64,000 bases of DNA from Elusimicrobia bacterium GWA2_51_34 (GCA_001799565.1 MGTS01000021.1:192785-256784); one strand, 5' to 3'. Shown: positions 532 to 63,350, numbered from the stretch's first letter. Numbers and translations: made by a program. Notes: generated by a model from the letters alone, not told the origin.

Positions 532-623
532 TCTAGTGATTCAGCGATTTAGTAATTAAGTAATTGAGTTCGGGGCGATTGTTTTTAACCAAATCACTTA
601 ATCACTCTTTACTTAATTACTAT
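532..623. repeat. Intergenic imperfect palindrome, word family GTGATTAAGT/ACTTAATCAC
   Basis: Left arm is ctagtgattcagcgatttagtaattaagtaattgagtt and right arm is aaccaaatcacttaatcactctttacttaattactat. It fills the atpD/atpG spacer. The same words recur at 59136-59262. Confidence 0.8.
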
Positions 624-1520
624 TTATCCTCCAAGTGCTTCTGCTCCGCCTACTATTTCACTCAACTCGGTTGTGATCATGGCCTGGCGGGTTTTATTCA
701 TTTTAAGCGTAAGCCCTTCTATAAGTTCCTCGGCGTTTTTGGAGGCCGATTCCATGGCGTTCATGCGCGCGGCCAGTTCCGCCGCCTGCGATTCCAGCAG
801 CACCCTGTAAAGCTGGGCTTTAAGCTGGCGCGGTAAAAGCGCCTCAAGCAGCTTTGTCTTTGACGGCTCAAAATTAAAATCGCCGCATTTAACCGCCGTG
901 CCGCTTACAAGCGCGCGGCTTTTAAGCGGCAGCAGATCGCCTATAACTATGCGCTGGGTGAGCATTGACTTGAACTCGTTATAAATAAGCGTGACGCGCT
1001 CAATGTCCCTGCCCAGGAACAGCTCAAGCACTTTCTCCCCGATAATTTCCGCTTTGGCGTAATCCGCCTTGGGGAAGATATTCACCATTTCAAAATACAA
1101 TTCCAGATTAAGCCCCTTCAGCCGCTTTAAAAGATCTCGCCCCTTCCTGCCCACCGCAAGCGCGTAAATTTTTTTACCGCGGTATTCTTTCAGCCAGGCG
1201 AGCGCAGCCTTAAGCAGGTTGGTGTTGAAAGAGCCGCATAAGCCCTTGTCTGCCGTTACCAGCACCAGACAAACGGCGCCGGACACGGGTTTTTCCTCAA
1301 ACAGTTTATAGGCCGGGGACGCCATAAAATCTTCCTCTTCCATCTCCCGGTAGAGGTCGCCTATAAGGCTGTCCATTTCATCGGAGAAAGGCCTGGCGGA
1401 CATTATGCCCGACTGGGCGCGTTTTATACGCGCAGCAGCCACCATTTTCATGGCATGGGTTATCTGCTTTATGCTTTTAACCGAGCCTATGTGTTTTCTG
1501 ATGTCGCGTATAGAAGCCAT
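624..1520 (-). CDS. atpG: F1 ATP synthase gamma subunit
   Basis: 298 aa starting MASIRDIRKHIGSVKSIKQITHAMKMVAAARIKRAQ, a typical gamma N-terminus, located within the atp cluster. Confidence 0.93.
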   Translation of the reverse strand: MASIRDIRKHIGSVKSIKQITHAMKMVAAARIKRAQSGIMSARPFSDEMDSLIGDLYREMEEEDFMASPAYKLFEEKPVSGAVCLVLVTADKGLCGSFNTNLLKAALAWLKEYRGKKIYALAVGRKGRDLLKRLKGLNLELYFEMVNIFPKADYAKAEIIGEKVLELFLGRDIERVTLIYNEFKSMLTQRIVIGDLLPLKSRALVSGTAVKCGDFNFEPSKTKLLEALLPRQLKAQLYRVLLESQAAELAARMNAMESASKNAEELIEGLTLKMNKTRQAMITTELSEIVGGAEALGG

Positions 1521-1535
1521 GATATTTGACCGTTA

Positions 1536-1635
1536 GCAACTGAAAGCTACAGAAGGCTACGGAAAGTTTTCGGAAATGATGAATTCTTCTCTTACTTTCT
1601 TTGGCCTTCAGTGGCCTTCTCTATCTTTCTCTTGC
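1536..1635. repeat. Imperfect palindrome, purine/pyrimidine word family AGAAGGC/GCCTTCT
   Basis: Left arm is gcaactgaaagctacagaaggctacggaaag and right arm is cttactttctttggccttcagtggccttct. The right arm overlaps the last codons of hldD. A related element lies at 34091-34187. Confidence 0.6.
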
Positions 1636-4160: not shown

Positions 4161-4180
4161 TTCAAATACCGCCTTTAATA

Positions 4181-4246
4181 GAGCTGAAGAACTGAAGTTC
4201 TGAAGTTAAAGAGAGAATAATCTTCAGCGCTTCAGAGCTTCAGCGC
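4181..4246. repeat. Intergenic imperfect palindrome, word CTGAAG/CTTCAG
   Basis: Left arm is gagctgaagaactgaagttctgaagtt and right arm is cttcagcgcttcagagcttcagcgc, in the atpA/atpH spacer. Confidence 0.8.
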
Positions 4247-4250
4247 TGGT

Positions 4251-5332: not shown

Positions 5333-5342
5333 GGGGAACTCC

Positions 5343-5468
5343 AGTCTGAGAGTCTAGAAGTCTGAGAGTCACAGAGTCTTAGCGTCAGAGAGTCCTAAGA
5401 TTTTGGAGTTTATTACTTTCAGACTCCCAGACTCTCAGACTCTTAGACTCTCATGACTCACGACTTCA
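5343..5468. repeat. Intergenic imperfect palindrome, word GAGTCT/AGACTC
   Basis: Left arm has gagtctgagagtc-type repeats and right arm has cagactcccagactctcagactcttagactc, in the atpF/atpE spacer. The same words occur at 31467-31556. Confidence 0.8.
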
Positions 5469-5764: not shown

Positions 5765-5801
5765 TATACTACCTCCCATATTTAACAGCGATCATTGACT
5801 A

Positions 5802-5896
5802 GTTGTCAGTGGACAGTGATCAGTAAAGAACAATCCGAAACTGACCACTGGTCACCTGCTTTCTCTGAATTGTGCTTCGCACCCACCACTACCCAC
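5802..5896. repeat. Intergenic imperfect palindrome, word CAGTGG/CCACTG
   Basis: Left arm is gttgtcagtggacagtgatcagt and right arm is ctgaccactggtcacctgc...cccaccactacccac, in the atpE/atpB spacer. Family members lie at 12347-12438 and 63289-63350. Confidence 0.75.
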
Positions 5897-5902
5897 TTTC
5901 CG

Positions 5903-6664: not shown

Positions 6665-6941
6665 TCTTTTTAATGGGGACGGCTTCGAAAATCAGCTGAA
6701 CCAGTATAAGAGAAACAGCGAACGGAACTATAATTATATATTTTTCACGCCGCAAAAACCAAACTGAGCCGGCAAGGAAAACCAGCCGGTACAAAAGCCC
6801 TCCTGCGAACACGGAATAAAAAACCGTATCCGGCGAGTTAAGCGTTTTTTTAAGCGACCAGCGTGCCAGCGCCCCGTTTAACACCCCCGCGGCAAGCCCC
6901 GAAAGAACAGCCATCCGGACTGAATCAATCATAAAAGACAC
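6642..6941 (-). CDS. Small membrane protein, ATP synthase protein I-like
   Basis: 99 aa with 3-4 hydrophobic segments. It overlaps the atpB start by 23 nt and sits where atpI normally lies. The call rests on position and topology only. Confidence 0.5.
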   Translation of the reverse strand: MSFMIDSVRMAVLSGLAAGVLNGALARWSLKKTLNSPDTVFYSVFAGGLLYRLVFLAGSVWFLRREKYIIIVPFAVSLILVQLIFEAVPIKKNGIKRDP

Positions 6942-7024
6942 CAGGTTGCAGGTGACAGGTAACAGGTGGCAGGCAGCAGGTGATAGGGCTCTCTGCCTGT
7001 GACCTGTAACCTGATACCTGCCGC
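6942..7024. repeat. Intergenic imperfect palindrome, word CAGGT/ACCTG
   Basis: Left arm is caggttgcaggtgacaggtaacaggtggcaggcagcaggtg and right arm is cctgtgacctgtaacctgatacctgcc. A 19-nt stretch cctgtaacctgatacctgc is identical to 45060-45078. Confidence 0.85.
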
Positions 7025-7042: not shown

Positions 7043-7252
7043 CTACTCTCCCTCTTTTCTGAAAAGTTCCTTCATAACCAGGTAAAAACCCGCCGCCATG
7101 CCGCCGGCCGCCCCGCCAAGCATTAGCCAGGGTGAAGTGCCCATTTTCCCATCCAGCCAGTAGCCGGCCCAAAAGCCAAGCAGCACGCTTACGGCCAATT
7201 CCAGGCCTATCTGCGCGTATTTCCAATAATTTTGGTCGGGCCGGCTATTCAT
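7043..7252 (-). CDS. atpZ: AtpZ/ATPase_gene1-like small membrane protein
   Basis: 69 aa with two TM helices. YWKYAQIGLELAVSVLLGFWAGYWLD is typical of the AtpZ family that heads atp operons. Confidence 0.7.
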   Translation of the reverse strand: MNSRPDQNYWKYAQIGLELAVSVLLGFWAGYWLDGKMGTSPWLMLGGAAGGMAAGFYLVMKELFRKEGE

Positions 7253-9111: not shown

Positions 9112-9151
9112 AAAAAAACGCCGTCCGCCTGAGGCGGACGGCGTTTTAATT
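9112..9151. terminator. Bidirectional intrinsic terminator
   Basis: 12-bp perfect stem acgccgtccgcc/ggcggacggcgt with loop tgag, an A7 run upstream and TTTT downstream. It lies between convergent genes. The stem core CCGCC-N4-GGCGG resembles the CCGCCTAAGGCGG hairpin family. Confidence 0.85.
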
Positions 9152-11090: not shown

Positions 11091-11110
11091 AAAGTTCTCA
11101 TCAAGAAGTT

Positions 11111-11176
11111 AGAATACAGTATACAGAATACCGCCTTCCGACTACTGACTACTGACTACTGAATTCTGTCTTCTCT
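11111..11176. repeat. Intergenic repeat: (GACTACT)x3 tandem heptamer plus a short inverted repeat ACAGAAT/ATTCTGT
   Basis: The sequence is agaatacagtatacagaataccgccttccgactactgactactgactactgaattctgtcttct, in the pckA/aminotransferase spacer. Confidence 0.7.
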
Positions 11177-11181
11177 TTTAC

Positions 11182-12342: not shown

Positions 12343-12346
12343 AGGG

Positions 12347-12438
12347 GTAAGTGGTTAGTGGACAGTGATCAGTGGTTAGTGAACAGCAGTGAAAACTTCC
12401 GGCCATTGCCCACTGGCCACTGCTCACTGACCACTTAG
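12347..12438. repeat. Intergenic imperfect palindrome, word CAGTGG/CCACTG
   Basis: Left arm is gtaagtggttagtggacagtgatcagtggttagtgaacagcagtg and right arm is cattgcccactggccactgctcactgaccactta. Confidence 0.8.
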
Positions 12439-12448
12439 TAAATCTTTA

Positions 12449-12520
12449 AGGCGCGGGCGGGAATCGAACCCGCGAATAGCAGTTTTGCAGACTGCCGCCT
12501 TACCACTTGGCCACCGCGCC
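12449..12520 (-). tRNA. tRNA-Cys (GCA)
   Basis: The reverse complement ggcgcggtggccaagtggtaaggcggcagtctGCAaaactgctattcgcgggttcgattcccgcccgcgcct folds as a cloverleaf. It has a 7-bp acceptor stem, a GGTTCGATTCC T-arm and a U73 discriminator. No CCA is encoded. Confidence 0.93.
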
Positions 12521-12619
12521 GTTATTGATACATATTACAAAACTTGGCATAAAGAAAAAAACGACTTCGGATGCGTCATCATGTTGAATACAAGTGTTTT
12601 ATGGTTTCAATCAGCGCGC

Positions 12620-12647
12620 GGGGAATTAAGTATTATGTCACCGGATT
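12620..12647. repeat. Island module, element A copy 1 (GGGGAATTAAGTATTATGTCACCGGATT)
   Basis: Lies immediately 3' of the Fe-S gene stop. It matches copies at 14584-14611 and 16313-16344 over AAGTATTATGTCACCG. Confidence 0.8.
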
Positions 12648-12648
12648 A

Positions 12649-14479: not shown

Positions 14480-14542
14480 CATAATCCCCCCTTGTATTAC
14501 AAATAGCATAGCAGACCGACACGACACCCTCTTGTCGCGTTG
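14480..14542 (-). promoter_or_regulatory. Island module, element P copy 1: palindromic operator plus extended -10 plus RBS upstream of the ORF6N gene
   Basis: Gene-sense read is CAACGCGACAAGAGGGTGTCGTGTCGGTCTGCTATGCTATTTGTAATACAAGGGGGGATTATG. It contains inverted repeat CGACA/TGTCG and a TGcTATGCT -10. It aligns with 16541-16602 and 18372-18431. Confidence 0.6.
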
Positions 14543-14556
14543 ATTGAGAGAATTTT

Positions 14557-14611
14557 CGGGGGTTTTAAAACAACCCAAGGAGAGGAACTAAGTATTATGT
14601 CACCGGATTCC
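14557..14611. repeat. Island module, GTTTTAAAAC core plus element A copy 2
   Basis: The sequence cgggggttttaaaacaacccaaggagaggaactaagtattatgtcaccggattcc is 47/55 identical to 16288-16342. It starts 6 nt after the SDR stop. Confidence 0.85.
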
Positions 14612-14616
14612 GTATA

Positions 14617-16272: not shown

Positions 16273-16287
16273 CGAATTTACACAATT

Positions 16288-16344
16288 GCGGGGTTTTAAA
16301 ACAGCCCAAAGCGGGGAATTAAGTATTATGTCACCGAATTCCCC
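16288..16344. repeat. Island module, GTTTTAAAAC core plus element A copy 3
   Basis: The sequence is gcggggttttaaaacagcccaaagcGGGGAATTaagtattatgtcaccgAATTCCCC. Element A here forms a perfect 8-bp stem with a 16-nt loop and overlaps the 3' end of the 69-aa ORF. Confidence 0.85.
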
Positions 16345-16540: not shown

Positions 16541-16602
16541 AGCGCCTCCTTTTGATAGCAAAATAGTATAGCAGGCCACCACGACAACGTATTGTCGCGT
16601 TG
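16541..16602 (-). promoter_or_regulatory. Island module, element P copy 2
   Basis: Gene-sense read is CAACGCGACAATACGTTGTCGTGGTGGCCTGCTATACTATTTTGCTATCAAAAGGAGGCGCTATG. The 40-nt core at 16563-16602 is 35/40 identical to 18392-18431. Confidence 0.6.
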
Positions 16603-16751
16603 TTTTTGTGAATGATCCCAATGGTCCCTGTGGTTTCAATCCGCTTTGACGGGGAAAGCATAAAGGAATTAGTTCCGGCCTTATACATAAAGGAGTCGAA
16701 TTCGACCCCTTTAAAACTCGGGGATGATAATATTTTAGCTCCAGCCAATTT

Positions 16752-16776
16752 CTCGCACCAACGGTGCGAGTTTTTC
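16752..16776 (+). terminator. Orphan intrinsic terminator on the + strand
   Basis: ctcgcacc-aac-ggtgcgag followed by TTTTT. It sits in a 350-bp gene-free gap where all annotated genes are on the - strand. Confidence 0.5.
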
Positions 16777-16992
16777 ATTCTGCGAGTAAATCTCATAAAA
16801 AATCCGCATCCGCCACAGGGGAAAAGGCTCCTGCTGCCTTTTGCAAACTTGAGGTAACAAATTGTGACCTCAAGTTACGCGCAGGGTGCCGATATAAAAT
16901 CAGGGTTGAAGATCCGTGGGCTGGCGTGCAATAGCCGTCCCGTCCCGGCGGCGGGTTCTGCCACCGCCGGACCCGTGTTTAATTAAGACTGG

Positions 16993-17301
16993 TCACTCTT
17001 CGTCCGGCTCCACCCAGTCTATGACCGTGCCGCCGCTGTTCGGATAATACGGGCTTACAAGCCAGTCCATATCGTCGCCTCGCAGAACACGGAAATCCCC
17101 CGCCTTGAACTGCTTATCCTCGTGGATATCCAGCAGCACGGCGTCAAGGGAAGGGACCGGCACAAAAGGATAAAGTTTTTTCAGCACTTCCTCCTTTTTA
17201 TCCGCCGGTATAATATACTCGTCCACATAGCCGCCTTCCACCTTAAGAAGCCGGGTGGGAAACGGCAGCGGCAGGTCCCCAGGCTTATCCATAGTTTTCA
17301 T
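16993..17301 (-). CDS. Hypothetical 102-aa acidic protein, translationally coupled to the DUF1016 nuclease gene
   Basis: Its start ATG overlaps the upstream TGA (ATGA at 17298-17301). I recognise no domain. Confidence 0.6.
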   Translation of the reverse strand: MKTMDKPGDLPLPFPTRLLKVEGGYVDEYIIPADKKEEVLKKLYPFVPVPSLDAVLLDIHEDKQFKAGDFRVLRGDDMDWLVSPYYPNSGGTVIDWVEPDEE

Positions 17302-18371
17302 TTTTCCTCCTTATTTTCCATCTGCTCACCAACAAACAGCCGCTCACGGGCATGCGCTATGGCCCGGCGCAGGCGGGTCTCAAGCGCGGCACGCGGCGGA
17401 AGCTCCGTTAAATACTCCGCGACCCTGATTCCGCTCTTGTCCAGCTCCAACAGTTCCACCTGCTCTTCGGATTTGCCGGCACATAATATAAGCCCGATAG
17501 GAGCCTCCTCGTGCGGCTGGCGCTCGTGCTTATTCAGCCAGCGCAGGTAAAGCTCCATCTGCCCCTTAAATTCCGGCTTAAACTTCTCAAGCTTTAGTTC
17601 TATGGCCACCAGCCGCCGCAGTTTCCGGTGGAAGAACAGCAAATCCAGGTAAAAATCGTCCGGGCCGACCTGCATCCTTTTCTGCCGCGCGACAAAAGTA
17701 AAGCCGGCGCCAAGTTCAAGGATAAAAGCCTCCATCTCCCTTAATATGGCGGATTCAAGGTCTTTTTCCTGATAAGCGCCCTTCAAACCCAAAAAATCAA
17801 GAAAATATGGGTCACGGAAAACCAGGTCAGGGCTGAGCGTATCTTCTTCTTTCAATTTCCGCAACTCAAGTTCGGCTAGTTTGGCCGGCTTCCTGGACAA
17901 AGCCGTACGCTCAAAAAGCATACCGCCGATCTTTCGCTCCATGGTGCGGGTATTCCAATTTTCTATGCGGCACATCTCAGCGTAAAAAGCCCGCTTTAAA
18001 GGGTCTTTAATATAAATCAGGATTTTAAAATGGGTCCAGCTCAATTGTCTCCGCAGCGCGGAGACAATCTTTTCATCACGGAACACTTCAAAAAACCGTA
18101 TCATGTGCCGCAGATTCTTTTCAGACACACCTTCGCCGTACTCCGGCGTGAGAGTTGCAGACAATGTCCTGACGATAGCTTCGCCATACCCCGCCCTGCG
18201 GCTACCTAAAATCTCCAGGCTGATCCTGCGTCCTATTGCCCAATACATTGCCGCTATGCCGGAAGTAACCGCACTCGCAACCCCGACACGCGCCTGTGTA
18301 ATAAGCAAGCGAACATCGGCCAGCAGCCGTGGCGGACACTCCCCGGCATGCTCAATTTCTTTTTTTGACAT
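17298..18371 (-). CDS. YhcG/DUF1016-family PD-(D/E)XK nuclease-domain protein
   Basis: 357 aa. The N-terminal DUF1016 helical region has LSWTHFKILIYIKDPLKRAFY. The C-terminal nuclease core is FYLDLLFFHRKLRRLVAIELKLEKFKPEFKGQMELYLRWL. AAGGAGGGG RBS lies upstream. Confidence 0.85.
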   Translation of the reverse strand: MSKKEIEHAGECPPRLLADVRLLITQARVGVASAVTSGIAAMYWAIGRRISLEILGSRRAGYGEAIVRTLSATLTPEYGEGVSEKNLRHMIRFFEVFRDEKIVSALRRQLSWTHFKILIYIKDPLKRAFYAEMCRIENWNTRTMERKIGGMLFERTALSRKPAKLAELELRKLKEEDTLSPDLVFRDPYFLDFLGLKGAYQEKDLESAILREMEAFILELGAGFTFVARQKRMQVGPDDFYLDLLFFHRKLRRLVAIELKLEKFKPEFKGQMELYLRWLNKHERQPHEEAPIGLILCAGKSEEQVELLELDKSGIRVAEYLTELPPRAALETRLRRAIAHARERLFVGEQMENKEEK

Positions 18372-18431
18372 AACCCCTCCTTACCGCGTACATAGCATAG
18401 CAGGCTAACGCGACAACGTATTGTCGCGGTG
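18372..18431 (-). promoter_or_regulatory. Island module, element P copy 3 with perfect palindrome CGCGACAA-tacg-TTGTCGCG
   Basis: Gene-sense read is CACCGCGACAATACGTTGTCGCGTTAGCCTGCTATGCTATGTACGCGGTAAGGAGGGGTTATG. Confidence 0.65.
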
Positions 18432-18537
18432 TTTTTAAAATATTTTTCACAGCTGTCCGGGGAAAGTTTTAAACTGGGGTGGGGTGTAAACCGAGTCGGA
18501 CCTTAGAATAGGCCAAATCTCCTAAGATGGAGGTTAA

Positions 18538-23528: not shown

Positions 23529-23560
23529 AGGCTTTCCCGCGTTGACAGCCCGCTGAAAAG

Positions 23561-23592
23561 CAGCCGTTACAGAAACGGCTGTTTTTATTTTA
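23561..23592 (+). terminator. Intrinsic terminator of the TPR gene
   Basis: CAGCCGTT-acaga-AACGGCTG followed by TTTTTATTTT. Confidence 0.8.
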
Positions 23593-29180: not shown

Positions 29181-29182
29181 GG

Positions 29183-36989: not shown

Positions 36990-37000
36990 ATAAAAATTTA

Positions 37001-37137: not shown

Positions 37138-37149
37138 TTTTTTTATTTA

Positions 37150-41384: not shown

Positions 41385-41410
41385 GTCGATTTCCCTTTTC
41401 AAATTCGCAA

Positions 41411-41553
41411 CTGTTCAGGTGAATAGGCTGTAGGCAGTTAGACTATTAGGTAAGAATCCGATTTGGCTAACCCCGCACTTTGGCCCTTTTCAGAAAAAGT
41501 GCGGGACTAACAGCCTAATAGCCTACAGCCTTCAGCCTAAACAACCGGTACTG
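41411..41553. repeat. Intergenic imperfect palindrome, word TAGGC/GCCTA, with an H1 hairpin nested at its centre
   Basis: Left arm is ctgttcaggtgaataggctgtaggcagttagactattaggtaag and right arm is ctaacagcctaatagcctacagccttcagcctaaacaaccggtactg. Confidence 0.8.
41471..41506. mobile_element. H1 hairpin element with flanking CTAA duplication
   Basis: ggCTAA[ccccgcactttggcccttttcagaaaaagtgcggga]CTAAcagcc. Confidence 0.6.
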
Positions 41554-43677: not shown

Positions 43678-43723
43678 AAAGCTGTTTTGTAAAGCCTCAA
43701 AAGTATATTATACTAAAATAAGT

Positions 43724-43845
43724 TGCGGCTAAGGTTCAAGGTTCAGCGGTTTCAATGGTTCAACGGTTGGGAATCAGGAAACACAAGAATATTCTAAAAA
43801 CAACCTTAAACCGTGAACCTTTGAAACCGCTGAACCGTGAACCCG
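43724..43845. repeat. Intergenic imperfect palindrome, word GGTTCA/TGAACC
   Basis: Left arm is gcggctaaggttcaaggttcagcggtttcaatggttcaacggtt and right arm is aaccttaaaccgtgaacctttgaaaccgctgaaccgtgaaccc. Confidence 0.85.
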
Positions 43846-43856
43846 ACAATTTTTTC

Positions 43857-45029: not shown

Positions 45030-45114
45030 CAGGTGGCAGGTATCAGGTAACAGGAAAATCCTGTAACCTGATACCTGCAACCTGTGACCTGTGACCTGTT
45101 GCCTGATACCTGCC
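44989..45114. repeat. Imperfect palindrome, word CAGGT/ACCTG
   Basis: The inner stem gcaggtatcaggtaacagg-aaaat-cctgtaacctgatacctgc matches 18/19 positions. The outer arms are made of looser caggt/acctg repeats. Confidence 0.9.
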
Positions 45115-45153
45115 CGCCAAACAACCGGCGGGTCCGCCCCAGGCGGATAAACT

Positions 45154-45184: not shown

Positions 45185-46270
45185 ATGGAAACTGTGCCAA
45201 AAAAAGAAAGACTGCTGCTGATCTTTGGCTTTACCCTGTGCGCGGCCCTGCTTACGGGGCATTATCTTTCCGGCTTGTCTCGAAACCTTGCCGCCGGCCG
45301 AGACCTTTCAGTAGCGCTGATCGGCGGCAATGCGCCGATGGTGTTTGTTTATCATTCCTTTTCAAAAACTGTGACTGCCGTGCACCTGCCCCGCGAGCGG
45401 TGGAGAAGCGGCGGCTCAAACTATCAAAAAGCCTGCGCGGCGCTGGCCCTGGTTTCCGGCGGACCGCAGGTTCAACGGGAAGATGTTTTTTACCTGGCGC
45501 CGGACGCGCCGGGGGTTGATTTAAGCGCCTTTTATGAAACTTTAAATTCGTGGCGTTCACGGCCCAGGCTGGTTTTAAAAGCCGCGCGCTGGCTGTGGCG
45601 GCTGAAAAAAGAGGAACGAACCAATATCTCTTTCCATGATCTGCTGCTCACGGTTCTTGAATTGTCGCGCCTTAACTCCTCCGACTTTGTTGTTACCGAT
45701 TTTGAACGCGGGGCCGGCCCAAAACCGCAGGCGGACGGTTCAGTCGCGGACAGCGCCAGAGGCCCGCGACAGGCCAGTGTCACAGTCGCGGACAGCGCCA
45801 GGCCGGATGATAGCGCCAGAGGCCACCGGCACGCCGGAGGCAGAAGCCCGCGACAGGCCAGTGTCACAGTCGCGGACAGTCCGCCTAAGGCGGAACAGGC
45901 CCCGCACTTTGGCCCTTTCGGAAAAAGTGCGGGGCAGGCCGGTGTCTTCCCCACACCAGCGGCACGTGTGGGGGCGGTCATACGGGTAGAGGTGTTAAAC
46001 GCCTCCGGCAAAAAAGACCTGGCCATGCAGGTTACCAAATATCTCCGTAAAAAAGGTTTTGACGTAATTGATTTCGGCACTTACACGGGTACCGGGAAGC
46101 TTACAAAAATAGTAAACTGTTCTGGCAATGTGGCCGCCGCCAAAGCCGTTCGTTCGGCTTTGGGGCTTACCGCGCTTGAAATATATTCCAAGTTTGAAGC
46201 GGGCAATGTCGCTGAAGTTTCGGTGATCCTTGGCGAGGATTTTAATGAAGAGATAATAAAAAGTAGATAA
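45185..46270 (+). CDS. Membrane-anchored LytR_C-domain protein with a repeat-derived linker
   Basis: It has an N-terminal TM helix and a C-terminal LytR_C-like domain (IRVEVLNASGKKDLAMQVTKYLRKKGFDVIDFG...VILGEDF). The linker (aa ~185-255) is encoded by palindromic repeats. Confidence 0.7.
   Translation: METVPKKERLLLIFGFTLCAALLTGHYLSGLSRNLAAGRDLSVALIGGNAPMVFVYHSFSKTVTAVHLPRERWRSGGSNYQKACAALALVSGGPQVQREDVFYLAPDAPGVDLSAFYETLNSWRSRPRLVLKAARWLWRLKKEERTNISFHDLLLTVLELSRLNSSDFVVTDFERGAGPKPQADGSVADSARGPRQASVTVADSARPDDSARGHRHAGGRSPRQASVTVADSPPKAEQAPHFGPFGKSAGQAGVFPTPAARVGAVIRVEVLNASGKKDLAMQVTKYLRKKGFDVIDFGTYTGTGKLTKIVNCSGNVAAAKAVRSALGLTALEIYSKFEAGNVAEVSVILGEDFNEEIIKSR
45742..45899. repeat. In-CDS repeat block: 33-nt unit CCCGCGACAGGCCAGTGTCACAGTCGCGGACAG twice (45763-45795 and 45847-45879, 84-nt period), plus H2 hairpin 45880-45894
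   Basis: The units contain inverted repeats GTCGCGG/CCGCGAC and CGCGAC/GTCGCG. The H2 core tccgcctaaggcgga is flanked by ACAG on both sides. Confidence 0.8.
45900..45934. mobile_element. H1 hairpin element inside the LytR_C-protein CDS, flanked by CAGG(C) direct repeats
   Basis: aaCAGG[ccccgcactttggccctttcggaaaaagtgcgggg]CAGGcc. Element plus duplication is 39 nt, or 13 codons, translated as ..APHFGPFGKSAGQ.. Confidence 0.65.
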
Positions 46271-46290: not shown

Positions 46291-47364
46291 ATGGATCTGG
46301 TAACTATACTCGGCGCTGCGGTGCAACAGGGTGCGTCTGACATTCATATCTGCGCCGGCAAGCCGCCAATGATGCGCCTTAACGGGCAGATAATGCCGGT
46401 AAACGCGAGTTTGGCTCCGCTTAAAGCGGAGGAAACAAAGTTGCTGGTGTATTCCGCGCTGTACGACGAACAGCGGGCTAAGTTTGAAGAGAATTGGGAA
46501 CTGGACTCTTCTTTCGCCGTGAAAGGCGTGTCCCGGTTCCGCCTGAATGTTCTTATCACAAGAGGCGGAGTGGACGCGGTAATGCGCGTTATTCCCTCCA
46601 TTATTCCGACTCCCGAGCAACTGGGCCTTCAGCCGACCATAGTAAATCTTTCCACCCTTCCAAAAGGGCTGGTGCTGGTTACCGGTCCCACCGGCTCCGG
46701 CAAATCCACAACGCTTGCTGCCATTCTGGACCTTATAAACCAGAAGAAAAAAGGCCATATCCTTACCATAGAGGATCCGATAGAATTCACCTACGAAAGC
46801 AAGGAATGCATAGTCCGTCAGCGCGAAATAGGCCAGCATACGAAGTCTTTTAACAACGCGCTCAGGGCCGCCCTGCGCGAGGATCCTAATGTTATTTTAG
46901 TCGGCGAAATGCGCGACCTTGAAACTATTCAGCTGACTATCACCGCGGCGGAAACCGGCCACCTGACGTTCGCCACCCTGCACACGCAGGACGCCCCTTC
47001 AACTATAGACCGCATAATAGACGTTTTTCCCCCTCATCAGCAGACGCAGGTGCGCGTGCAGCTGGCGGCTTCGCTGCAGGCGGTGGTGTCGCAGCTGCTG
47101 CTGCCGCGTATGGACGGAAAAGGCCGCGTAGCCGTGCGCGAGATAATGGTTATGACGCCGGCTATAGCGAATCTTATACGCGAAGGCAAGACGCACATGA
47201 TTTACAGCGCCATAGAAACCGGCGCCAAGTTCGGCATGATTCCCATGGATAAGGCGCTCTCAAACCTGGTAGCGCAGAAACTGATATCTTTTGAAAGTGC
47301 GGTGGCCAAAGCGCATGACCAGGAAATGTTTAAAAAACTCTGCGGTATGGCGGGCGGTTTATGA
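46291..47364 (+). CDS. pilT: Type IV pilus retraction ATPase PilT
   Basis: 357 aa with Walker A GPTGSGKSTT, an Asp box, and the PilT signature GHLTFATLHT. Confidence 0.92.
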   Translation: MDLVTILGAAVQQGASDIHICAGKPPMMRLNGQIMPVNASLAPLKAEETKLLVYSALYDEQRAKFEENWELDSSFAVKGVSRFRLNVLITRGGVDAVMRVIPSIIPTPEQLGLQPTIVNLSTLPKGLVLVTGPTGSGKSTTLAAILDLINQKKKGHILTIEDPIEFTYESKECIVRQREIGQHTKSFNNALRAALREDPNVILVGEMRDLETIQLTITAAETGHLTFATLHTQDAPSTIDRIIDVFPPHQQTQVRVQLAASLQAVVSQLLLPRMDGKGRVAVREIMVMTPAIANLIREGKTHMIYSAIETGAKFGMIPMDKALSNLVAQKLISFESAVAKAHDQEMFKKLCGMAGGL

Positions 47365-48805: not shown

Positions 48806-48820
48806 CCCCACTATTGTGCA

Positions 48821-48912
48821 AGGGTATAGGGTATAGGGTTTGGGGTATAGGGTTTGGGACAAGAAGTTTTTTATTTCTACCCTCTACCCTCTACCCTCTA
48901 CCCTCTGCCCTA
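48821..48912. repeat. Intergenic imperfect palindrome, word GGGTATAGG/CCTCTACCC
   Basis: Left arm is agggtatagggtatagggtttggggtatagggtttggg and right arm is ctaccctctaccctctaccctctaccctctgccc. Confidence 0.85.
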
Positions 48913-48926
48913 AAGAAGGTGGTGGG

Positions 48927-50583: not shown

Positions 50584-51120
50584 TTACTTGTGACCTGTGA
50601 CATGTGTCTTGTGACTTGTATTGTGCGCCTTGCAGCTTGCCTGGGCCAGCAGGAACAGGTAATCGGACAGGCGGTTAAGGTAAACGGCGCAGGGTCTGGC
50701 TTTTTTTACATGCCAGGTGAGTATTTCGGCTGAGCGGCATCTCGCGCGGGCTAAATGCAGCACGGCTTCGGCTTCGTTTCTACCCGGGGTCATAAAAGAT
50801 TTAATTTCAGGCAGGTTTTCGGACAGGCAGGCTATTTCTTTTTCAAGCCTGCGGGTTCCGGATTCAATTATTTTTAAATTATCAGCCCCGGCTATATGGG
50901 CGGAAAGCAAAAACAAGGTTTTTTGCTCGCCTTGAAGCCCTGCCCGCTCCCTGGCGGCCGGACCTTTCAATGTTCTGGCAAGACCAAGCCAGGCGCTCAG
51001 CTCATCTATAAGGGCGTTTGCCTTAACGCGCACATCGGTTTTTAAAACCCGTCTGCCCAGAAGCAGGCCGGTTGTGCCGTCATCGCCTCTGCCCATGGCC
51101 GGTTTAAATTTTTTTGGCAT
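50584..51120 (-). CDS. PduO-type ATP:cob(I)alamin adenosyltransferase
   Basis: 178 aa with GRGDDGTTGLL and helical-bundle sequence. The C-terminal tail ..HNTSHKTHVTGHK is encoded by TGTGAC/GTCACA repeat words. Confidence 0.8.
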   Translation of the reverse strand: MPKKFKPAMGRGDDGTTGLLLGRRVLKTDVRVKANALIDELSAWLGLARTLKGPAARERAGLQGEQKTLFLLSAHIAGADNLKIIESGTRRLEKEIACLSENLPEIKSFMTPGRNEAEAVLHLARARCRSAEILTWHVKKARPCAVYLNRLSDYLFLLAQASCKAHNTSHKTHVTGHK

Positions 51121-51451: not shown

Positions 51452-51460
51452 GCAATTGCT

Positions 51461-51612
51461 CAGGTTGTCAGGTTCACGGTTCAACGGTTCACAGTTTCCG
51501 CCGGGGGAGGACCCGCCGGCTGTTTTGCGGGCACGGTTATTTTTTCACGATCTTTTTATGTTCCCTGGTTCCCAACCGTTGAACTATTGAACCGTTGAAC
51601 CGTGAACCTTGG
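51461..51612. repeat. Intergenic imperfect palindrome, word GGTTCA/TGAACC
   Basis: Left arm is caggttgtcaggttcacggttcaacggttcacag and right arm is ccaaccgttgaactattgaaccgttgaaccgtgaacc. Confidence 0.8.
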
Positions 51613-51628
51613 TCGTTACATCTTCCTT

Positions 51629-52441: not shown

Positions 52442-53172
52442 AAATAATAGCTCATCGCGGGGCTTCAGGCTATGCTCCGGAAAATACGCTTAAAGCTTTT
52501 GAACTGGCCGTTAAAATGGGCGCCCGTGATTTTGAGTTTGACATACACCGTACTAAAGACGGCATTCTGGTGGTGCACCACGATTATGACCTGAAGCGGA
52601 CGGCCGCGAAAGAGGCCAAAATAGCGGAGCTCGCATACGAGGAACTTAAAAAAATAAATGTGGCCGCGCATTTCGCCAAAAACCCGTCTTTCCAGCGGAC
52701 GCCACGGCTTGAGGAGGTGCTGGATATTATAGAGCCGGCCGCGCGCTGGCTGAATTTTGAGATAAAAAATGACGGCAATGTCTACCCCGGAGTAGAGGAA
52801 CAGCTGCTGGCTTTTCTGAGAAGCAAGCCCGGACTTTTTGAAAAAGCGGTGGTTTCCAGTTTTGATCAGGGTACTGTCAGGCGTTTTCGCGAGCTTTCGC
52901 CGGAACTGCGGCTGGCCTATTTGAGCCATGGTTTAAGCGCTATGCTGCTTACGCCGGCTCTTAAAAAAGCCAAAGCTATCGGTGCGGTGAACTTCCACAT
53001 CAATTTGCGCCTGGCTTTCAAGCTTAATGTGGCTAAAATAAAAAAAGCCGGTTTCCGCGTCTGCGTTTATACGGTAAATAACAGTAAAGACGCCCTGCGT
53101 ATGAAAGAAATAGGAGCGGACGGTATTTTCAGCAATTATCCGGATATAATGACTAGATGCGTAGATGCGTAG
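52438..53172 (+). CDS. glpQ: Glycerophosphodiester phosphodiesterase
   Basis: IAHRGASGYAPENT, and FEFDIHRTKDGILVVHHD. The GTG start overlaps the preceding stop (GTGA). Confidence 0.85.
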   Translation: MKIIAHRGASGYAPENTLKAFELAVKMGARDFEFDIHRTKDGILVVHHDYDLKRTAAKEAKIAELAYEELKKINVAAHFAKNPSFQRTPRLEEVLDIIEPAARWLNFEIKNDGNVYPGVEEQLLAFLRSKPGLFEKAVVSSFDQGTVRRFRELSPELRLAYLSHGLSAMLLTPALKKAKAIGAVNFHINLRLAFKLNVAKIKKAGFRVCVYTVNNSKDALRMKEIGADGIFSNYPDIMTRCVDA

Positions 53173-53270
53173 AGGCAAAGATGCAAAGAGGAAGGAAAAT
53201 AGAAATTCAGGGGATTCCCATTTCCAAACTGCTACGCATCTAAGTTGCTACGCCTCTGGACTGCTGCGCA
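53153..53270. repeat. Imperfect palindrome, word GATGCGTAG/CTACGCATC
   Basis: Left arm is tagatgcgtagatgcgtagaggcaaagatgcaaagagg and right arm is ctgctacgcatctaagttgctacgcctctggactgctgcgcat. The left arm overlaps the last codons of glpQ. Confidence 0.8.
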
Positions 53271-53290
53271 TTCAACTAACTACCAATTTT

Positions 53291-58375: not shown

Positions 58376-59134
58376 TTACTTGCCTACTTTTGCCGCCAGC
58401 ACTATCAGGCGGTTCTTTTGCGCGGTGAGCGGGCGGCCTTTGAAATCTCCCCAGAATTTAAGGGGCTTAAAACCGGCTTTTTTAAGCGCCGCGCTCATGT
58501 TTTTTTTGTCGTAGAGGCGGGTATAAAAACTGCGGCTGGCCGGTTTCCTGCCGGGCTTTAGCACAGTCCAGGTGTTGAAAACCCCTTGCCGGTTTTTTTG
58601 TAAAGAGGCATGTTCAAGGTGAAATCCCCCTCCCGGCAGTTCTGTCCAGTTGCGGGGGTGGAAGTGTGTGCGCACAAAATCGCCGTGGATAACGTCTATC
58701 ATCAGCCTGCCTCCGGGTTTCAGCGCGCGGGCCAGGCCTTTCAAAACTTTTACATCGTCCGATAATTTCCGGAAATAGCCGAAACTGGTAAAAAGGTTAA
58801 CGGCGGCGTCGAATTCGCTTTTATATTTAAGAGCGCGCATATCGCCGCGCGTCAGACGGAGCGGTATTTTGTGTTTTTTGGCGCGGGCAGCGGCTTCTTT
58901 CAGATATTCTTTTGAAAAATCATAGCCGGTGACTTTCAGGCCTTTTTTCGCGAACTCCACTGCGTGCCGGCCCGGTCCGCAGCAGAGGTCAAGCAGCGCG
59001 GACCCTTTTTTTAGTTTCAACTGCCTTAAAACAAAACGCGCCTCATGTGGGGCGCGCTCCACTGCCGCCGGTGAGGCAGGGTTATAAAAAGAGTTTTTGA
59101 AAAATTTTTTATGCCAGTCGTTCTTCAATTTCAT
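58376..59134 (-). CDS. Class I SAM-dependent methyltransferase
   Basis: It has motif I LLDLCCGPGRH and a post-I acidic residue. Substrate unknown. Confidence 0.8.
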   Translation of the reverse strand: MKLKNDWHKKFFKNSFYNPASPAAVERAPHEARFVLRQLKLKKGSALLDLCCGPGRHAVEFAKKGLKVTGYDFSKEYLKEAAARAKKHKIPLRLTRGDMRALKYKSEFDAAVNLFTSFGYFRKLSDDVKVLKGLARALKPGGRLMIDVIHGDFVRTHFHPRNWTELPGGGFHLEHASLQKNRQGVFNTWTVLKPGRKPASRSFYTRLYDKKNMSAALKKAGFKPLKFWGDFKGRPLTAQKNRLIVLAAKVGK

Positions 59135-59135
59135 T

Positions 59136-59262
59136 AGTCAGTAATTGAGTGATTAAGTGATTCGTGATTTAGTTGCAAGAGATTCTGATTCTCTTTCCTG
59201 TTTTAATGAATTTTTCAATTGCTTAATCACTGAATTAATCGTCACTTAACTGATCTCTTACC
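59136..59262. repeat. Imperfect palindrome, word GTGATTAAGT/ACTTAATCAC
   Basis: Left arm is agtcagtaattgagtgattaagtgattcgtgatttagtt and right arm is caattgcttaatcactgaattaatcgtcacttaactga. The right arm encodes the last 9 codons of the next gene. Confidence 0.85.
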
Positions 59263-61086: not shown

Positions 61087-61214
61087 TGACTATATGTTAT
61101 AAAATTAAAGGCCGCATTCAAAAACATGCCGGTTTTTTTATTATACTATTGTTGAAATAAGCCGGATTTTGTCGTTTAAAGAGGCGATTTACGGAAAGAA
61201 TAATCGAACACCCC

Positions 61215-63287
61215 GTGCTTGAGCCGGAAGAAAAAAAGAAACTCCGTTTTACTTTTGAAGGAAGGGAACTGGAGGCCTTTGAAGATGAGGTTATTTCTTC
61301 CGCTTTGATCGCCGCGGGAATTAAGATTTTCAGCCATCATAAAAAAGACGGCAGCCCGCAGGGCATCTTTTGCGCGAACGGCCAATGCGCCCAATGCACC
61401 GTGGTCGCCGATGGTCTGCCGGTTAAGGCCTGCGTCACCAAAGTAAAGGAAGGTATGAAGGTTGCCGCGCTTAACGGCCTGCCGAAAATGCCGCGGACCG
61501 TATGCGTGCAGGAATTAGGGCGCGTTGAGGAAATTGAAACGGACGCGCTTATAGTGGGGGGAGGGCCCTCGGGGCTTGCCGCCGCGGCGGAGCTTGGAAA
61601 GCTTAACATCCCTACGCTTATAATAGACGACAAACACAAGCTTGGCGGCAAGCTTGTGCTGCAGACGCATAAATTTTTCGGGTCGGTGGAGGATTGTTTC
61701 GCCGGCACGAGAGGCATAGATATCGCCGACAAGCTTGAAGACCGGCTTAAGGCGTATCCTTCCGTTAAAGTGTGGACGAACGCCGTCTGCGCTGCCGTTT
61801 TTTCCGACAAGCGCGCGGGGGTGGTTTACAACGGGGTCTATTACCTTATAAAGCCCAGGGCTTTTATAAGCGCCACCGGCGCGAGGGAAAAAACTCTGGC
61901 TTTCGCCGGCAACACCCTGCCCGGAGTTTACGGCGCGGGGGCTTTTCAGACTTTAGTCAACCGCGACCTGGTGCGGCCCTCAAAAAATCTGTTTATAGCC
62001 GGCGGCGGCAATGTGGGGCTTATCGCCGCGTACCACGCGTTACAGGCCGGAATAAAAGTGGCCGGCCTTATAGAAGCCCTGGACCATTGCGGCGGCTACA
62101 AGGTGCATCTGGATAAAATAAAGCGCCTGGGCGTGCCGGTTTATACCCGTCACACCGTAGTCAGTGCCAATGGGAAAAACGGGGTGGAGTCCGTTACCAT
62201 GGCGCAGGTGGACGCTGATTTCAAGCCGGTTAAAGGCACAGAAAAAACCTTCGCGGCCGACACCCTGCTGGTGGCGGTGGGCTTAAATTCTGTGAGCGAA
62301 TTTCACGACCAGGCAACAGCTTTCGGTATGAACGCGTTCGTGTGCGGAGACGCCGAGGAAATAGCTGAGGCGTCGGCCGCGATGTTCAGCGGCAGGATAA
62401 CCGCGCACAAGGTGCTTAAAAGCCTTGGTGTGATGACGGGTCCCGTGCCGCAGTTCTGGTTTGAGCGCCTGCAAACCCTGAAATCGCGCCCGGGTATTAC
62501 TCAGGAACGCGCCGTAACGGACAAGGATAAGGCGGTTTATCCCGTGCTTCACTGCCGCCAGGAAATCCCCTGCGACCCGTGCGCTACGGTCTGCCCTAAA
62601 AAATCCATAAAAATACCGAAGAACGACATGATGGCCGTCCCAAAATTTGAGGGGGAGTGCATAGGGTGCTTTAAATGCCTGCTTATCTGCCCGGGGCTTG
62701 CCGTTACCATTGTTGACAAGCGTAAAGACCGGCAATTACCCACGGTAGCGCTTCCGTTTGAAATAGGCCGCGGCCTAGTAAAAAAAGGCGACTCTGTAAA
62801 ACTTACTGACTGCGAAGGCGCGGAGCTTGGGGACGCGCAGGTGGTGGACGTGAAGGATTTTAAGGCTGAGAATACTCTGATAGTAATAGCCAAAACAACG
62901 GCCGCCGCAGCCGATAAGGCTGCCGGGCTTAAGCTTTATAAGGCGCAGAATCCGCAAACAGCGGGCGGTGATTTTTCCAGCATGTCCGACGAGGTGATTA
63001 TCTGCCGCTGTGAACGGGTGAGCCTGGGCGAGATCCGCAAGGCTATCCGTTCCGGCATACGGGATTTAAACCAGCTTAAAGCCGTTACACGCGCCGGCAT
63101 GGGCGCCTGCGGGGCTAAAACCTGCGCTTCACTTATTGCTGGAATTTATAAAAGCGAGGGCGTGGACCTTAAAGAAGTTACGGCATTAAGCCAAAGGCCG
63201 CTTTTCGCGGAAGTGCCGCTCGGAACGTTCTCAAATATCAAGTGCCGTACAGAGGAAGAAGAAAAGGCCTCCTGGAGCGGGTTTTAG
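61215..63287 (+). CDS. Multi-cofactor flavoprotein oxidoreductase alpha-type subunit (N-terminal 2Fe-2S, FAD/NAD(P) fold, 2x4Fe-4S, BFD-like 2Fe-2S)
   Basis: It has CANGQCAQC, GGGPSGLAAA and GGGNVGL dinucleotide folds, CDPCATVCP...CIGCFKCLLICP, and CRCERV...CGAKTC. It resembles opine oxidase A, HcnA/B, and the alpha subunit of archaeal-type proline dehydrogenase. GTG start. Confidence 0.7.
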   Translation: MLEPEEKKKLRFTFEGRELEAFEDEVISSALIAAGIKIFSHHKKDGSPQGIFCANGQCAQCTVVADGLPVKACVTKVKEGMKVAALNGLPKMPRTVCVQELGRVEEIETDALIVGGGPSGLAAAAELGKLNIPTLIIDDKHKLGGKLVLQTHKFFGSVEDCFAGTRGIDIADKLEDRLKAYPSVKVWTNAVCAAVFSDKRAGVVYNGVYYLIKPRAFISATGAREKTLAFAGNTLPGVYGAGAFQTLVNRDLVRPSKNLFIAGGGNVGLIAAYHALQAGIKVAGLIEALDHCGGYKVHLDKIKRLGVPVYTRHTVVSANGKNGVESVTMAQVDADFKPVKGTEKTFAADTLLVAVGLNSVSEFHDQATAFGMNAFVCGDAEEIAEASAAMFSGRITAHKVLKSLGVMTGPVPQFWFERLQTLKSRPGITQERAVTDKDKAVYPVLHCRQEIPCDPCATVCPKKSIKIPKNDMMAVPKFEGECIGCFKCLLICPGLAVTIVDKRKDRQLPTVALPFEIGRGLVKKGDSVKLTDCEGAELGDAQVVDVKDFKAENTLIVIAKTTAAAADKAAGLKLYKAQNPQTAGGDFSSMSDEVIICRCERVSLGEIRKAIRSGIRDLNQLKAVTRAGMGACGAKTCASLIAGIYKSEGVDLKEVTALSQRPLFAEVPLGTFSNIKCRTEEEEKASWSGF

Positions 63288-63288
63288 G

Positions 63289-63350
63289 AAAGTAGGCAGT
63301 GCTCAGTGGACAGTATTATGCTGACCACCGATCACTAACCACTAACCACT
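63289..63350. repeat. Intergenic imperfect palindrome, word CAGTGG/CCACTG
   Basis: Left arm is gtaggcagtgctcagtggacagt and right arm is gctgaccaccgatcactaaccactaaccactg. Confidence 0.75.

Follow-up and report, generated by a model that had tools for sequence, protein, structure and literature searches.

The window examined here is a 64-kb (64,000-nt) stretch of Elusimicrobia bacterium GWA2_51_34 in which many intergenic spacers hold a dyad, i.e., an array of tandem words of 7 to 8 nt, a loop, and an array of the complementary words. We consider it probable (roughly 0.6) that these elements are selfish hairpin DNA of the kind known as short tandemly repeated repetitive sequences (STRR) or heptamer inverted repeats. 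The repeat system is real and abundant. Its kind is already known (STRR and heptamer inverted repeats), and it is new to the Elusimicrobiota. We found nothing to indicate that the host needs the elements, and the way they come and go among relatives speaks against their being essential at any single junction.

Twenty clear dyads and four half or degenerate copies (1533-1572, 11105-11175, 38290-38375, and 50584-50622) were found in the window; together the 24 copies make up about 2.4 kb, or 3.7% of it. A first-pass annotation, made from the sequence alone, had described long imperfect palindromes built from a small set of recurring words. The described structure is present at 532, 2564, 4179, 5343, 5802, 6942, 12347, 29094, 31467, 37001, 41411, 43724, 44989, 51461, 59136, and 63289, the word families recur at distant loci as stated there, and further copies were located at 30128, 34088, 48815, and 53145. 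It had also placed such elements in most of the larger spacers; the count is 24 of 45, i.e., about half. The window corresponds, in reverse complement, to positions 13852-77851 of a 237.6-kb contig of a Rifle-groundwater Elusimicrobia metagenome-assembled genome (MAG) (ENA ERZ978281 k127_32068). This contig, GCA_001799915.1, and a JGI assembly show 100% identity over their common stretch. Because three independent assemblies agree letter for letter, an assembly artefact was ruled out as the source of the repeats.

The arrays are far more frequent than expected by chance. A periodicity detector found 29 arrays of period 7 or 8 (4.2 ± 2.0 in dinucleotide shuffles) and nine strictly complementary array pairs (0.00 in dinucleotide shuffles). 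Arrays of period 7 or 8 are nearly all intergenic, and those of period 6 and period 9 lie mostly in coding sequence. This detector was used in place of two others, a pairing detector based on Tandem Repeats Finder (TRF) consensus words and a strict palindrome aligner, each of which overlooked most elements. Comparison of RNA folding energies with shuffled controls, a check proposed earlier, came out clearly: 12 of the 13 dyads folded gave z scores of -2.7 to -10.6, and the thirteenth (E22, 53145-53274) gave -2.3. None of 200 shuffles was as stable as the natural sequence for 11 of the 13, and four of 200 were as stable for E22. The z scores of coding controls scattered around zero. Two of the claimed sites, 1521-1591 (one-armed) and 11091-11181, do not fold.

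The elements, numbered E01 to E24 by position, are given below with their folding z scores (z) where available; open reading frame is abbreviated ORF and ribosome-binding site RBS.

E01, 532-623: dyad in the atpD/atpG spacer; arms 535-570 and 591-623; word GTGATTNA (8 nt); z -5.3.
E02, 1533-1572: one-armed degenerate array in the atpG/epimerase spacer; GCTACAGAAG-like units of about 10 nt, complementary arm absent; z -0.5.
E03, 2560-2648: dyad in the epimerase/atpA spacer; arms 2564-2593 and 2608-2645; word CTNGTAGG (8 nt); z -3.7. In sense orientation the atpA stop codon lies within the first word and the RBS touches the last word.
E04, 4175-4250: dyad in the atpA/atpH spacer; arms 4179-4209 and 4219-4249; word CTGAAGNN (8 nt), 3+3 units; z -5.9.
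E05, 5340-5462: dyad in the atpF/atpE spacer; word GAGTCTNA (8 nt), about 7+6 units; z -6.8.
E06, 5795-5902: dyad in the atpE/atpB spacer; arms 5806-5825 and 5841-5860; word CAGTGGN; z -2.5 for the whole spacer; additional unpaired CCCACYA words at 5880-5902.
E07, 6940-7024: dyad in the gap between a 96-aa ORF and an AtpI-like gene; word CAGGTNN (7 nt), with a 19-nt block at 7003-7021; z -5.2.
E08, 11105-11175: decaying dyad in the PEPCK/aminotransferase spacer; z -1.7. One arm consists of three perfect GACTACT words (CAGTAGT in sense orientation) and the other still has AGAATAC-type words.
E09, 12344-12440: dyad beside a tRNA gene (12449-12520); word CAGTGGN (7 nt); z -5.0.
E10, 29090-29183: dyad at the nifU/nifS junction; word GTAGGCTA / GTATGCTG (8 nt); z -5.4; the called nifS start (29157) lies inside.
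E11, 30128-30218: dyad; word AGAATAN / TTCTATN (7 nt); z -4.4.
E12, 31464-31562: dyad in the convergent gap between an ACT-domain gene and gyrA; word GAGTYNNA (8 nt); z -6.6; aligns with E05.
E13, 34088-34188: dyad in the gyrA/gyrB spacer; words of about 10 nt (GCAACNGAAG); z -3.0.
E14, 36998-37140: GGTTCA-family dyad between gyrB and dnaN; a 46-nt repeat beginning GGCTATGCC in the loop (37059-37103).
E15, 38290-38375: doubtful weak remnant in the dnaN/dnaA spacer; GTGTTAG/TAACAC; z +0.95, no better than shuffles.
E16, 41408-41548: dyad in the tldD/pmbA spacer; word TAGGCTG (7 nt); hairpin repeat CCCCGCACTTT...AAAGTGCGGG in the loop; z -3.3.
E17, 43722-43848: GGTTCA-family dyad in a divergent spacer; the called CTP_transf-HD start (43755) lies inside; z -8.8.
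E18, 44987-45116: double CAGGT-family dyad with the 19-nt block at 45060-45078; z -10.6; its outer 5' arm (44989-45029) serves as the closing part of the CTP_transf-HD coding sequence.
E19, 48815-48916: dyad in the rsfS/argS spacer; word AGGGTAT / TCTACCC (7 nt); z -4.8.
E20, 50584-50622: half copy with CCTGTGA-type words, forming the C-terminal coding end of a Cob_adeno_trans gene.
E21, 51458-51619: GGTTCA-family dyad with an additional GC-rich hairpin in the loop; z -3.9.
E22, 53145-53274: dyad at the GDPD/nadA junction; word TAGATGCG (8 nt); z -2.3; the called nadA start (53165) lies inside.
E23, 59134-59240: dyad; word GTGATTNA (8 nt); z -2.7; aligns with E01.
E24, 63290-63356: short dyad; word CAGTGNN / CACTAAC (7 nt).

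Each dyad is built from three to eight tandem words of 7 to 8 nt (G-rich here), a loop of 3 to about 100 nt, and the complementary words. The elements span 67-162 nt, their arms 19-66 nt, and at least 10 word families are present in the window. Some loops hold other small repeats (the 46-nt unit of E14, the CCCCGCACTTT hairpin of E16, and the GC-rich hairpin of E21). The predicted stems are segmented: helices are mostly 4-6 bp long and interruptions fall mostly every 6-8 nt, which points to mismatches at variable word ends. In some families an invariant core is joined to a variable spacer (CCTG+NNN in 8/8 words and CAGG+NNN in 6/6). Uneven variation across word positions is obvious in the CAGGT family; the pooled test gave p = 0.17.

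The first-pass annotation also proposed a fixed polarity, with a G/T-rich arm first and a C/A-rich arm second. The G-first order holds for 19 of 20 elements (5' arms with 33% G and 14% C, 3' arms with 14% G and 32% C). "G/T-rich" and "C/A-rich" are only half right, since A and T show no skew. The polarity is lineage-specific, because C-first dyads occur in other genomes. Since words of period 7 or 8 would bring a stop codon into each reading frame, three-frame stops were considered as the main cause of the G-first order and rejected, as only 7 of the 20 5' arms have them; stop density is 0.082 per nt in 5' arms and 0.063 per nt in 3' arms, and the stops of GGTTCA elements lie in the 3' arm.

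Occupancy of the larger spacers depends on gene orientation: elements were found in 21 of 33 co-directional, one of seven divergent, and two of five convergent spacers. They thus favour co-directional gaps and avoid divergent promoter gaps, a distribution similar to that of repetitive extragenic palindromes (REP). No element was found between 12.6 and 29 kb of the window.

Dispersal of the elements is evident from comparison of the copies within the window. By alignment, E14, E17, and E21 (GGTTCA family) show the same order of variant words and the same non-repetitive loop. E07 and E18 have in common the 19-nt block and the flank AAAGNCAYC. This block had been reported before as an identical pair; the identity and the second position (45060-45078) are correct, and the first copy lies at 7003-7021 rather than 6999-7017.

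Three relatives with the same atp synteny were compared with the window: L084 (95% AtpA identity), L086 (93%), and L087 (88%). An orthologue of E01 with the identical word GTGATTNA is present in L084, and the E09 site in L087 holds only a degenerate remnant. Other families change junction from genome to genome. GAGTC words are found at atpE/atpF in the window and at epimerase/atpG in L087, GTAGGC words at atpA/epimerase in the window and at atpE/atpF in L084, and TAGTGTAGAG words at epimerase/atpG in L084 and at atpE/atpF in L087. Whichever family it belongs to (GAGTC, GTAGGC, or TAGTGTAGAG, depending on the genome), the atpE/atpF element always ends at the conserved RBS CTGGAG. The GGDEF/atpI spacer, empty in the window, holds in L087 a GGTTCA element whose loop likewise begins with GGTTATCTTTT. 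Gain or loss as whole units, raised as a possibility in the first-pass annotation, is seen in these relatives at two junctions, where the element is present or absent whole. In the window the atpH/atpA spacer measures 90 nt; it reaches 106 nt in L087 and is only 13 nt long (AAGGCGGTTTTAC, the empty site) in L084 and L086. The atpA/epimerase spacer measures 94 nt in the window and 1-12 nt in L084, L086, and L087, where the element is absent.

The elements also change in place. The atpH/atpA orthologues have 3+3 units in the window and 4+4 in L087, with one word different on both arms. The arms of E08 are no longer complementary after one-sided homogenisation, and the L087 orthologue still pairs. 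Judged from these alignments, dispersal is clear, and local growth is also visible. A purely local origin, in which slippage grows an array of 7-8-nt units and snap-back or template switching copies it into the opposite arm with no movement at all, would account for the perfect word runs as recent slippage (three GACTACT in E08 and four TCTACCC in E19), for the symmetrical shift in unit number between orthologues, and for the likeness that the first word can bear to the local stop codon and RBS (CTAGGAGG vs CTAGTAGG at atpA/epimerase). Heptamers are also described as a favoured slippage unit in many bacteria in a passage of PMC4679880 that cites Mrazek (2007). We regard this origin as very unlikely, because paralogues at unlinked loci and in different genomes have a common non-repetitive loop, order of variant words, and termini, and because a related cassette described below is identical in at least six unrelated contexts.

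The enrichment at operon junctions bears on another explanation, that the dyads are host-selected RNA structures (protection from 3' exonucleases, RNase III/E sites, or attenuation) setting the ratios of operon products. The first-pass annotation had suggested a role of this sort in mRNA stability, processing, or attenuation, and had stated that every non-overlapping atp junction has a dyad. That statement stands for six of the seven open junctions; the seventh, atpG/epimerase (1521-1591), has only the one-armed degenerate array E02 (z -0.5). Strong folding, the occupancy of atp junctions and of co-directional spacers with avoidance of divergent promoter gaps, and the exact ending of elements at an RBS would all suit such a role, and passages of PMC3733652 credit REPs with effects of this kind. 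Several results argue against it. Sense and antisense strands fold equally stably (18 elements, Wilcoxon p = 0.91). The closest relatives do without the atpH/atpA and atpA/epimerase elements, with spacers of 1-13 nt, and their other junctions hold unrelated word families in different relatives. Decayed copies that do not fold persist (E02 and E08), some copies occupy divergent or convergent gaps or extend into the ends of coding sequences, and ordinary short GC-rich terminators with T-runs exist separately (9115-9147 and 23556-23586). Effects of the dyads on mRNA are possible, but a host function of this kind seems unlikely to explain them.

We prefer to regard the dyads as selfish hairpin DNA, with the following life cycle. 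Copies are dispersed: paralogues are alike in word order, loop, and termini, and related genomes hold the same families at other junctions. They persist where they are harmless, mostly between a stop codon and the next RBS of co-directional genes, and some persisting copies supply a stop codon or a short C-terminal tail. Change in place proceeds by slippage of whole words, with arm-to-arm correction suggested by the 3+3 and 4+4 orthologues, and loss removes whole units. Transcribed copies are predicted to fold into long stem-loops, and these may have a side effect on mRNA decay or RNase III processing.

Relatives of the GGTTCA family with a gene in the loop were found elsewhere. Scanning metagenomes with the conserved right arm of the GGTTCA elements of the window gave eight loci. 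Five are ORF-less dyads, of which two (L094 and L098) have in the loop the 46-nt insert seen in E14. GGTTCA arms enclose a gene for a 134-aa protein in L099 and L097, and an internally deleted 72-aa version of it in L093. The 134-aa protein belongs to PF05635/TIGR02436 ("23S rRNA intervening sequence protein", an Avd-like four-helix bundle) with an E value of 1e-26; a solved homologue from Xanthomonas (2GSC) has five chains in the entry. E21 has termini, GCTCAGGTT... and ...GGTCGTTAC, that resemble the ends of mobile PF05635 cassettes.

The same arrangement is found on plasmids. In a Nostoc punctiforme plasmid, an annotated four-helix-bundle gene (1617-1982) lies between (CAGGAGT)n and (ACTCCTG)n. 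For a test unbiased by the repeat pattern, plasmids were searched by tblastn, which gave nine non-redundant PF05635 genes. Seven of these have a G-rich word array directly upstream and its complement directly downstream; one of the other two has direct arrays and one has none. Flank alignment scores were 24-34 for the seven genes (background-gene median 11), and one of the seven, from a Riemerella (Bacteroidota) plasmid, has GGTTCAA words. With the Nostoc gene added, complementary word arrays lie on both sides of 8 of 10 PF05635 genes from plasmids. A PF05635 gene in Pseudanabaena galeata plasmid pPg_01 (L107, 46268-46627) was seen between cas6 and cas4, with flanks of direct heptamers, (AAAAGCT)x14 upstream and (AAAAGCC)x10 downstream.

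Homologues of the L099 protein with 77-100% identity (the 100% match is the query's own record) are found in Nitrospirae, Desulfaltia, Pseudomonadota, and Thermodesulfobacteriota MAGs, mostly on very short contigs. One such PF05635 gene, P0149, lies inside a 507-nt element, 5'-GTAACTAC...GTAGTTAC-3', which is 99-100% identical in at least six contexts with unrelated flanks (identity 0.22-0.37). This cassette has spread recently without sequence change. Another such gene, P0236, is flanked by aroA and aroK, and the genome it belongs to contains ORF-less dyads built from different words as well. A PF05635 ORF is found in the loop in L099, L097, and L110-L127, in addition to the eight plasmid genes. 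By analogy, the ORF-less copies may be non-autonomous counterparts of the PF05635 cassettes, as transposable elements of the miniature inverted-repeat type (MITEs) are to insertion sequences, or as ORF-less are to ORF-bearing rRNA intervening sequences (IVSs). The Coxiella IVS is a selfish stem-loop with this ORF and is cut by RNase III, and it was suggested long ago that the ORF serves mobility (PMC4990558). Our literature search found no publication linking PF05635 genes with heptamer arrays. We put forward, tentatively and at less than even odds, that STRR-type dyads, ORF-less rRNA IVSs, and PF05635 genes form one unrecognised class of mobile hairpins across phyla, in which the flanked PF05635 gene would be the gene-bearing form, its protein may recognise the words, and the dyads would be its miniature offspring.

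In another explanation, the arrays would be binding sites for an oligomeric nucleic-acid-binding protein (a PF05635 oligomer or other), with every word core of 4-6 nt acting as a single site that recurs at intervals of 7-8 nt, and with the hairpin as a by-product or as a display on two strands. The invariant cores with variable spacers, the location of PF05635 genes between such arrays, and the five chains in the 2GSC entry are compatible with this, and regulatory effects of Nostoc heptamer repeats have been reported (bioRxiv 10.1101/2022.06.06.494920). The presence in a single genome of at least 10 word cores that are unrelated, with no PF05635 gene in the window, and the pooled word-position test (p = 0.17) speak against binding arrays, and we find that explanation very doubtful.

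The selfish-hairpin explanation has points against it as well. No PF05635 homologue was found in the 64-kb window by tblastn or by Pfam searches of small ORFs, and the PF05635-bearing loci belong to other organisms. The loops of ORF-less GGTTCA elements show no significant similarity to the PF05635 cassette interiors beyond the arms, so the gene, instead of being the parent of ORF-less copies, could be a guest that enters hairpin loops already in place. Neither a transposase nor any other mobilising enzyme was found, and there is no Y1 transposase gene among the called genes of the window. Target-site duplication is not visible at filled vs empty sites or around the 507-nt cassette (six contexts); the filled and empty atpH/atpA and atpA/epimerase sites show only ambiguous similarities of 2-4 nt (TTA and AGCT). 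Enrichment at operon junctions is equally expected of a functional RNA element. Selection or a binding factor could lie behind the invariant cores with variable spacers and the strong G-first polarity.

PF05635 genes in dyad loops offer a testable link and are the part most worth following. The dyads are also a source of systematic annotation error in MAGs, as ORF starts are extended into them and C-terminal tails vary. Public gene calls begin nifS (29157), CTP_transf-HD (43755), and nadA (53165) within word dyads. The true starts of these three genes are probably downstream of the dyads, because the 3' arm lacks stop codons in one frame.

Other small repeats were noticed in and near the dyads. 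A second family with a unit of about 46 nt (CTAGCCTATGGCTGTGCCGTAACAGGAGCTATGCCCATCAGACGGC), tandem or single, is present at 30017-30080, 30875-31030, and 37059-37103, in L094 and L098, and in the atpB/atpE spacer of L084; it nests in GGTTCA dyad loops. It brings to mind the nesting of small dispersed repeats in Nostoc heptamer contexts that Elhai and colleagues reportedly described in 2008. The third family, at 13594, 30977-31013, 41471-41505 (the E16 loop), and 45900-45934, consists of a hairpin, CCCCGCACTTT..(loop)..AAAGTGCGGGG. One copy of this hairpin lies inside a called LytR_C ORF and adjoins 42-nt tandem repeats (45741-45879), which recur in an intergenic dyad loop of L087. Two regions of L087 (6700-7000 and 17480-17600) have in common GATTCCCCGCAG[TG]AGCGGGTCG, once in a GGTTCA dyad loop and once in another spacer. 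This stretch has no Rfam match and may be another small mobile or structured element.

The gene map of the window was revised from gene calls and Pfam. The atp operon is on the minus strand. A gene for an NAD-dependent epimerase/dehydratase (1592-2551) lies inside this F-type ATP synthase operon between atpA and atpG, a position kept in all close relatives examined (L084, L086, and L087); it had been overlooked in the first-pass annotation. The overlap of atpB and atpI given there does not exist: what overlaps atpB is a 96-aa ORF without a name, and the dyad at 6940-7024 separates this ORF from the AtpI-like gene (7043-7252). AtpA shows at most 72% identity to any GTDB species representative, with Elusimicrobia as the best matches; closer relatives (83-95%) exist in metagenomes. 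Genes of the replication region are as follows.

gyrA: 31562-34066.
gyrB: 34188-36641.
dnaN: 37150-38265.
dnaA: 38380-39747 (region 38380-39935).
Tandem DnaA boxes TTATCCACA: at 39740 and 39751 (39740-39759), upstream of dnaA.

Because dnaA-dnaN-gyrB-gyrA are present with DnaA boxes, the window probably spans the replication origin. The cumulative GC-skew minimum falls at about 36-38 kb of the window.

Two regions outside the dyads have repeats of their own. A 455-aa ORF (22161-23528) with no Pfam match on record contains 102-nt (34-aa) tandem repeats at 22864-23400, which are unrelated to the intergenic elements and which we guess to be TPR-like. Between 12.6 and 18.6 kb, within the part of the window (12.6-29 kb) that has no word dyads, genes for ORF6N, a DUF1016/YhcG nuclease, and small ORFs are separated by two recurring modules. 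Module one, GGGGTTTTAAAACA.CCCAA..TAAGTATTATGTCACCGGATT, is found at 12600-12648, 14560-14616, and 16283-16330, and module two, ATAGCATAGCAGGC..CGCGACAACGTATTGTCGCG, at 14505-14545, 16560-16605, and 18395-18440. The layout looks like a cassette array or island.

The first-pass annotation compared the elements to REPs and bacterial interspersed mosaic elements (BIME). The likeness is good in part: they are extragenic imperfect palindromes that form hairpins, with several families per genome, enriched between co-directional and convergent genes, and no target duplication is seen. REP units, however, measure 20-40 nt, carry a GTAG or CGTC tag, and have a cognate REP-associated tyrosine transposase (RAYT), whereas the window elements measure 67-162 nt, have internally repetitive arms, and lack a general GTAG/CGTC tag. 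No RAYT/Y1_Tnp match was found among the called genes of the 64-kb window. No terminal motif is common to the window elements; GTAGTTAC and GTAACTAC are absent from the window, and GTAGTTAC ends only PF05635 cassettes elsewhere.

A true system of REPs or REP-derived hairpins (REPINs) with RAYTs, in which single-stranded hairpins are moved by a Y1/HUH transposase encoded elsewhere, would fit the REP-like distribution and hairpin shape and the lack of target-site duplication. Inverted GTAGTTAC forms the ends of the mobile PF05635 cassettes and includes the GTAG tag given for one REP superfamily in a passage of PMC3733652, and a Y1_Tnp gene lies 6 kb from one cassette (L120). This gene encodes a protein of 248 aa (HUH + Tyr, 16763-17509) and has inverted repeats GGGACAT..TAGTTTATAAGTT; only its 3' part is left in strain L124. 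It was rejected as the cassette's partner, because its terminal inverted repeats are its own and unrelated and no word arrays flank it. Furthermore, the window elements are two to five times longer than REPs and have no common tag, and to serve more than 10 families, many RAYTs would be required, or a single one that recognises nothing but structure. We hold such a system to be highly improbable.

The window elements differ from intrinsic terminators in their long, segmented stems (4-6-bp helices), most of which are without a T-run. Only two tRNAs in the window match Rfam 15 above the gathering score, and the elements of the window and of L087 match no family. MITEs are similar in being short, ORF-less, and numerous, with long inverted-repeat arms that form hairpins and with larger gene-bearing relatives that have the same arms; but no target-site duplication is seen here, and the gene-bearing relatives encode the PF05635 four-helix bundle and not a known transposase. 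With 23S rRNA IVSs the elements have in common a selfish stem-loop with complementary borders, an optional PF05635 ORF in the loop, and a sporadic horizontal distribution (Warrier et al., 2016, PMC4990558). The IVS layout with the ORF is matched exactly by relatives of the window's GGTTCA family. The window copies, in contrast, are located between protein genes and not in rRNA helices, and they have no ORF.

Among heptamer repeats, the TAACTGA arrays of Beggiatoaceae, cyanobacteria, and Bacteroidetes are similar in lying just upstream of start codons and in their patchy distribution across phyla. They are direct arrays of a single word, with an inverted partner in 1 in 170 (MacGregor, 2015, PMC4679880), whereas the window arrays are inverted and use many words. 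The GGGAATC heptamers of Xanthomonas form 70-75 convergent inverted pairs (Rehm et al., 2015, PMC4692102). They resemble the window elements in that heptamer arrays on opposite strands are able to form stem-loops, and they are intergenic, mostly transcribed, and variable in length between species; no link to known mobile elements was found for them (PMC4692102). They differ in having one dominant word with G-quadruplex potential, whereas the window has at least 10 families, most without G-tracts.

The same architecture is found in other phyla. The detector picked up six of 80 atp loci of diverse species. The array in L065 seems to be a near-palindromic word repeated directly, not a dyad; the other five are from Acidobacteriota, a Manganitrophaceae MAG (Nitrospirota), and an alphaproteobacterium, and some words are the same as in the window (CAGTGG, GGTTCA, and GTGATTT). 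Similar arrays are present in Thermotalea loci. No dyads were found in the closest GTDB Elusimicrobia loci.

The record of heptamer (STRR) repeats goes back to 1990, and that of rRNA IVSs and PF05635/S23p genes to the early 1990s; to our knowledge, none of the three has an accepted origin or function. The STRR repeats of heterocystous cyanobacteria were reportedly described by Mazel and co-workers in 1990. Published work on them deals mainly with direct repeats and fingerprinting targets. Their words CCCCAGT, TTGGTCA, and CAACAGT are all different from those of the window. The window elements are similar to STRR repeats in their tandem intergenic units of about 7 nt, in the many word families per genome, and in often lying directly ahead of a start codon. 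Within 50 kb of Nostoc punctiforme pNPUN01 (L092), the same detector found the G-rich array, loop, and complementary array, e.g., at 930-1119, 44784-44915, and 46595-46850, with (CAGGAGT)n, a loop, and (ACTCCTG)n just before the RBS. The differences are the host (Elusimicrobiota), the words, 8-nt units as frequent as 7-nt units, and a higher GC content. With 3.7% of the window and about half of its larger spacers occupied, STRR-like architecture is abundant far beyond the cyanobacteria. Of the known kinds, the cyanobacterial STRR/heptamer repeats and the GGGAATC inverted pairs of Xanthomonas come closest to the window elements.

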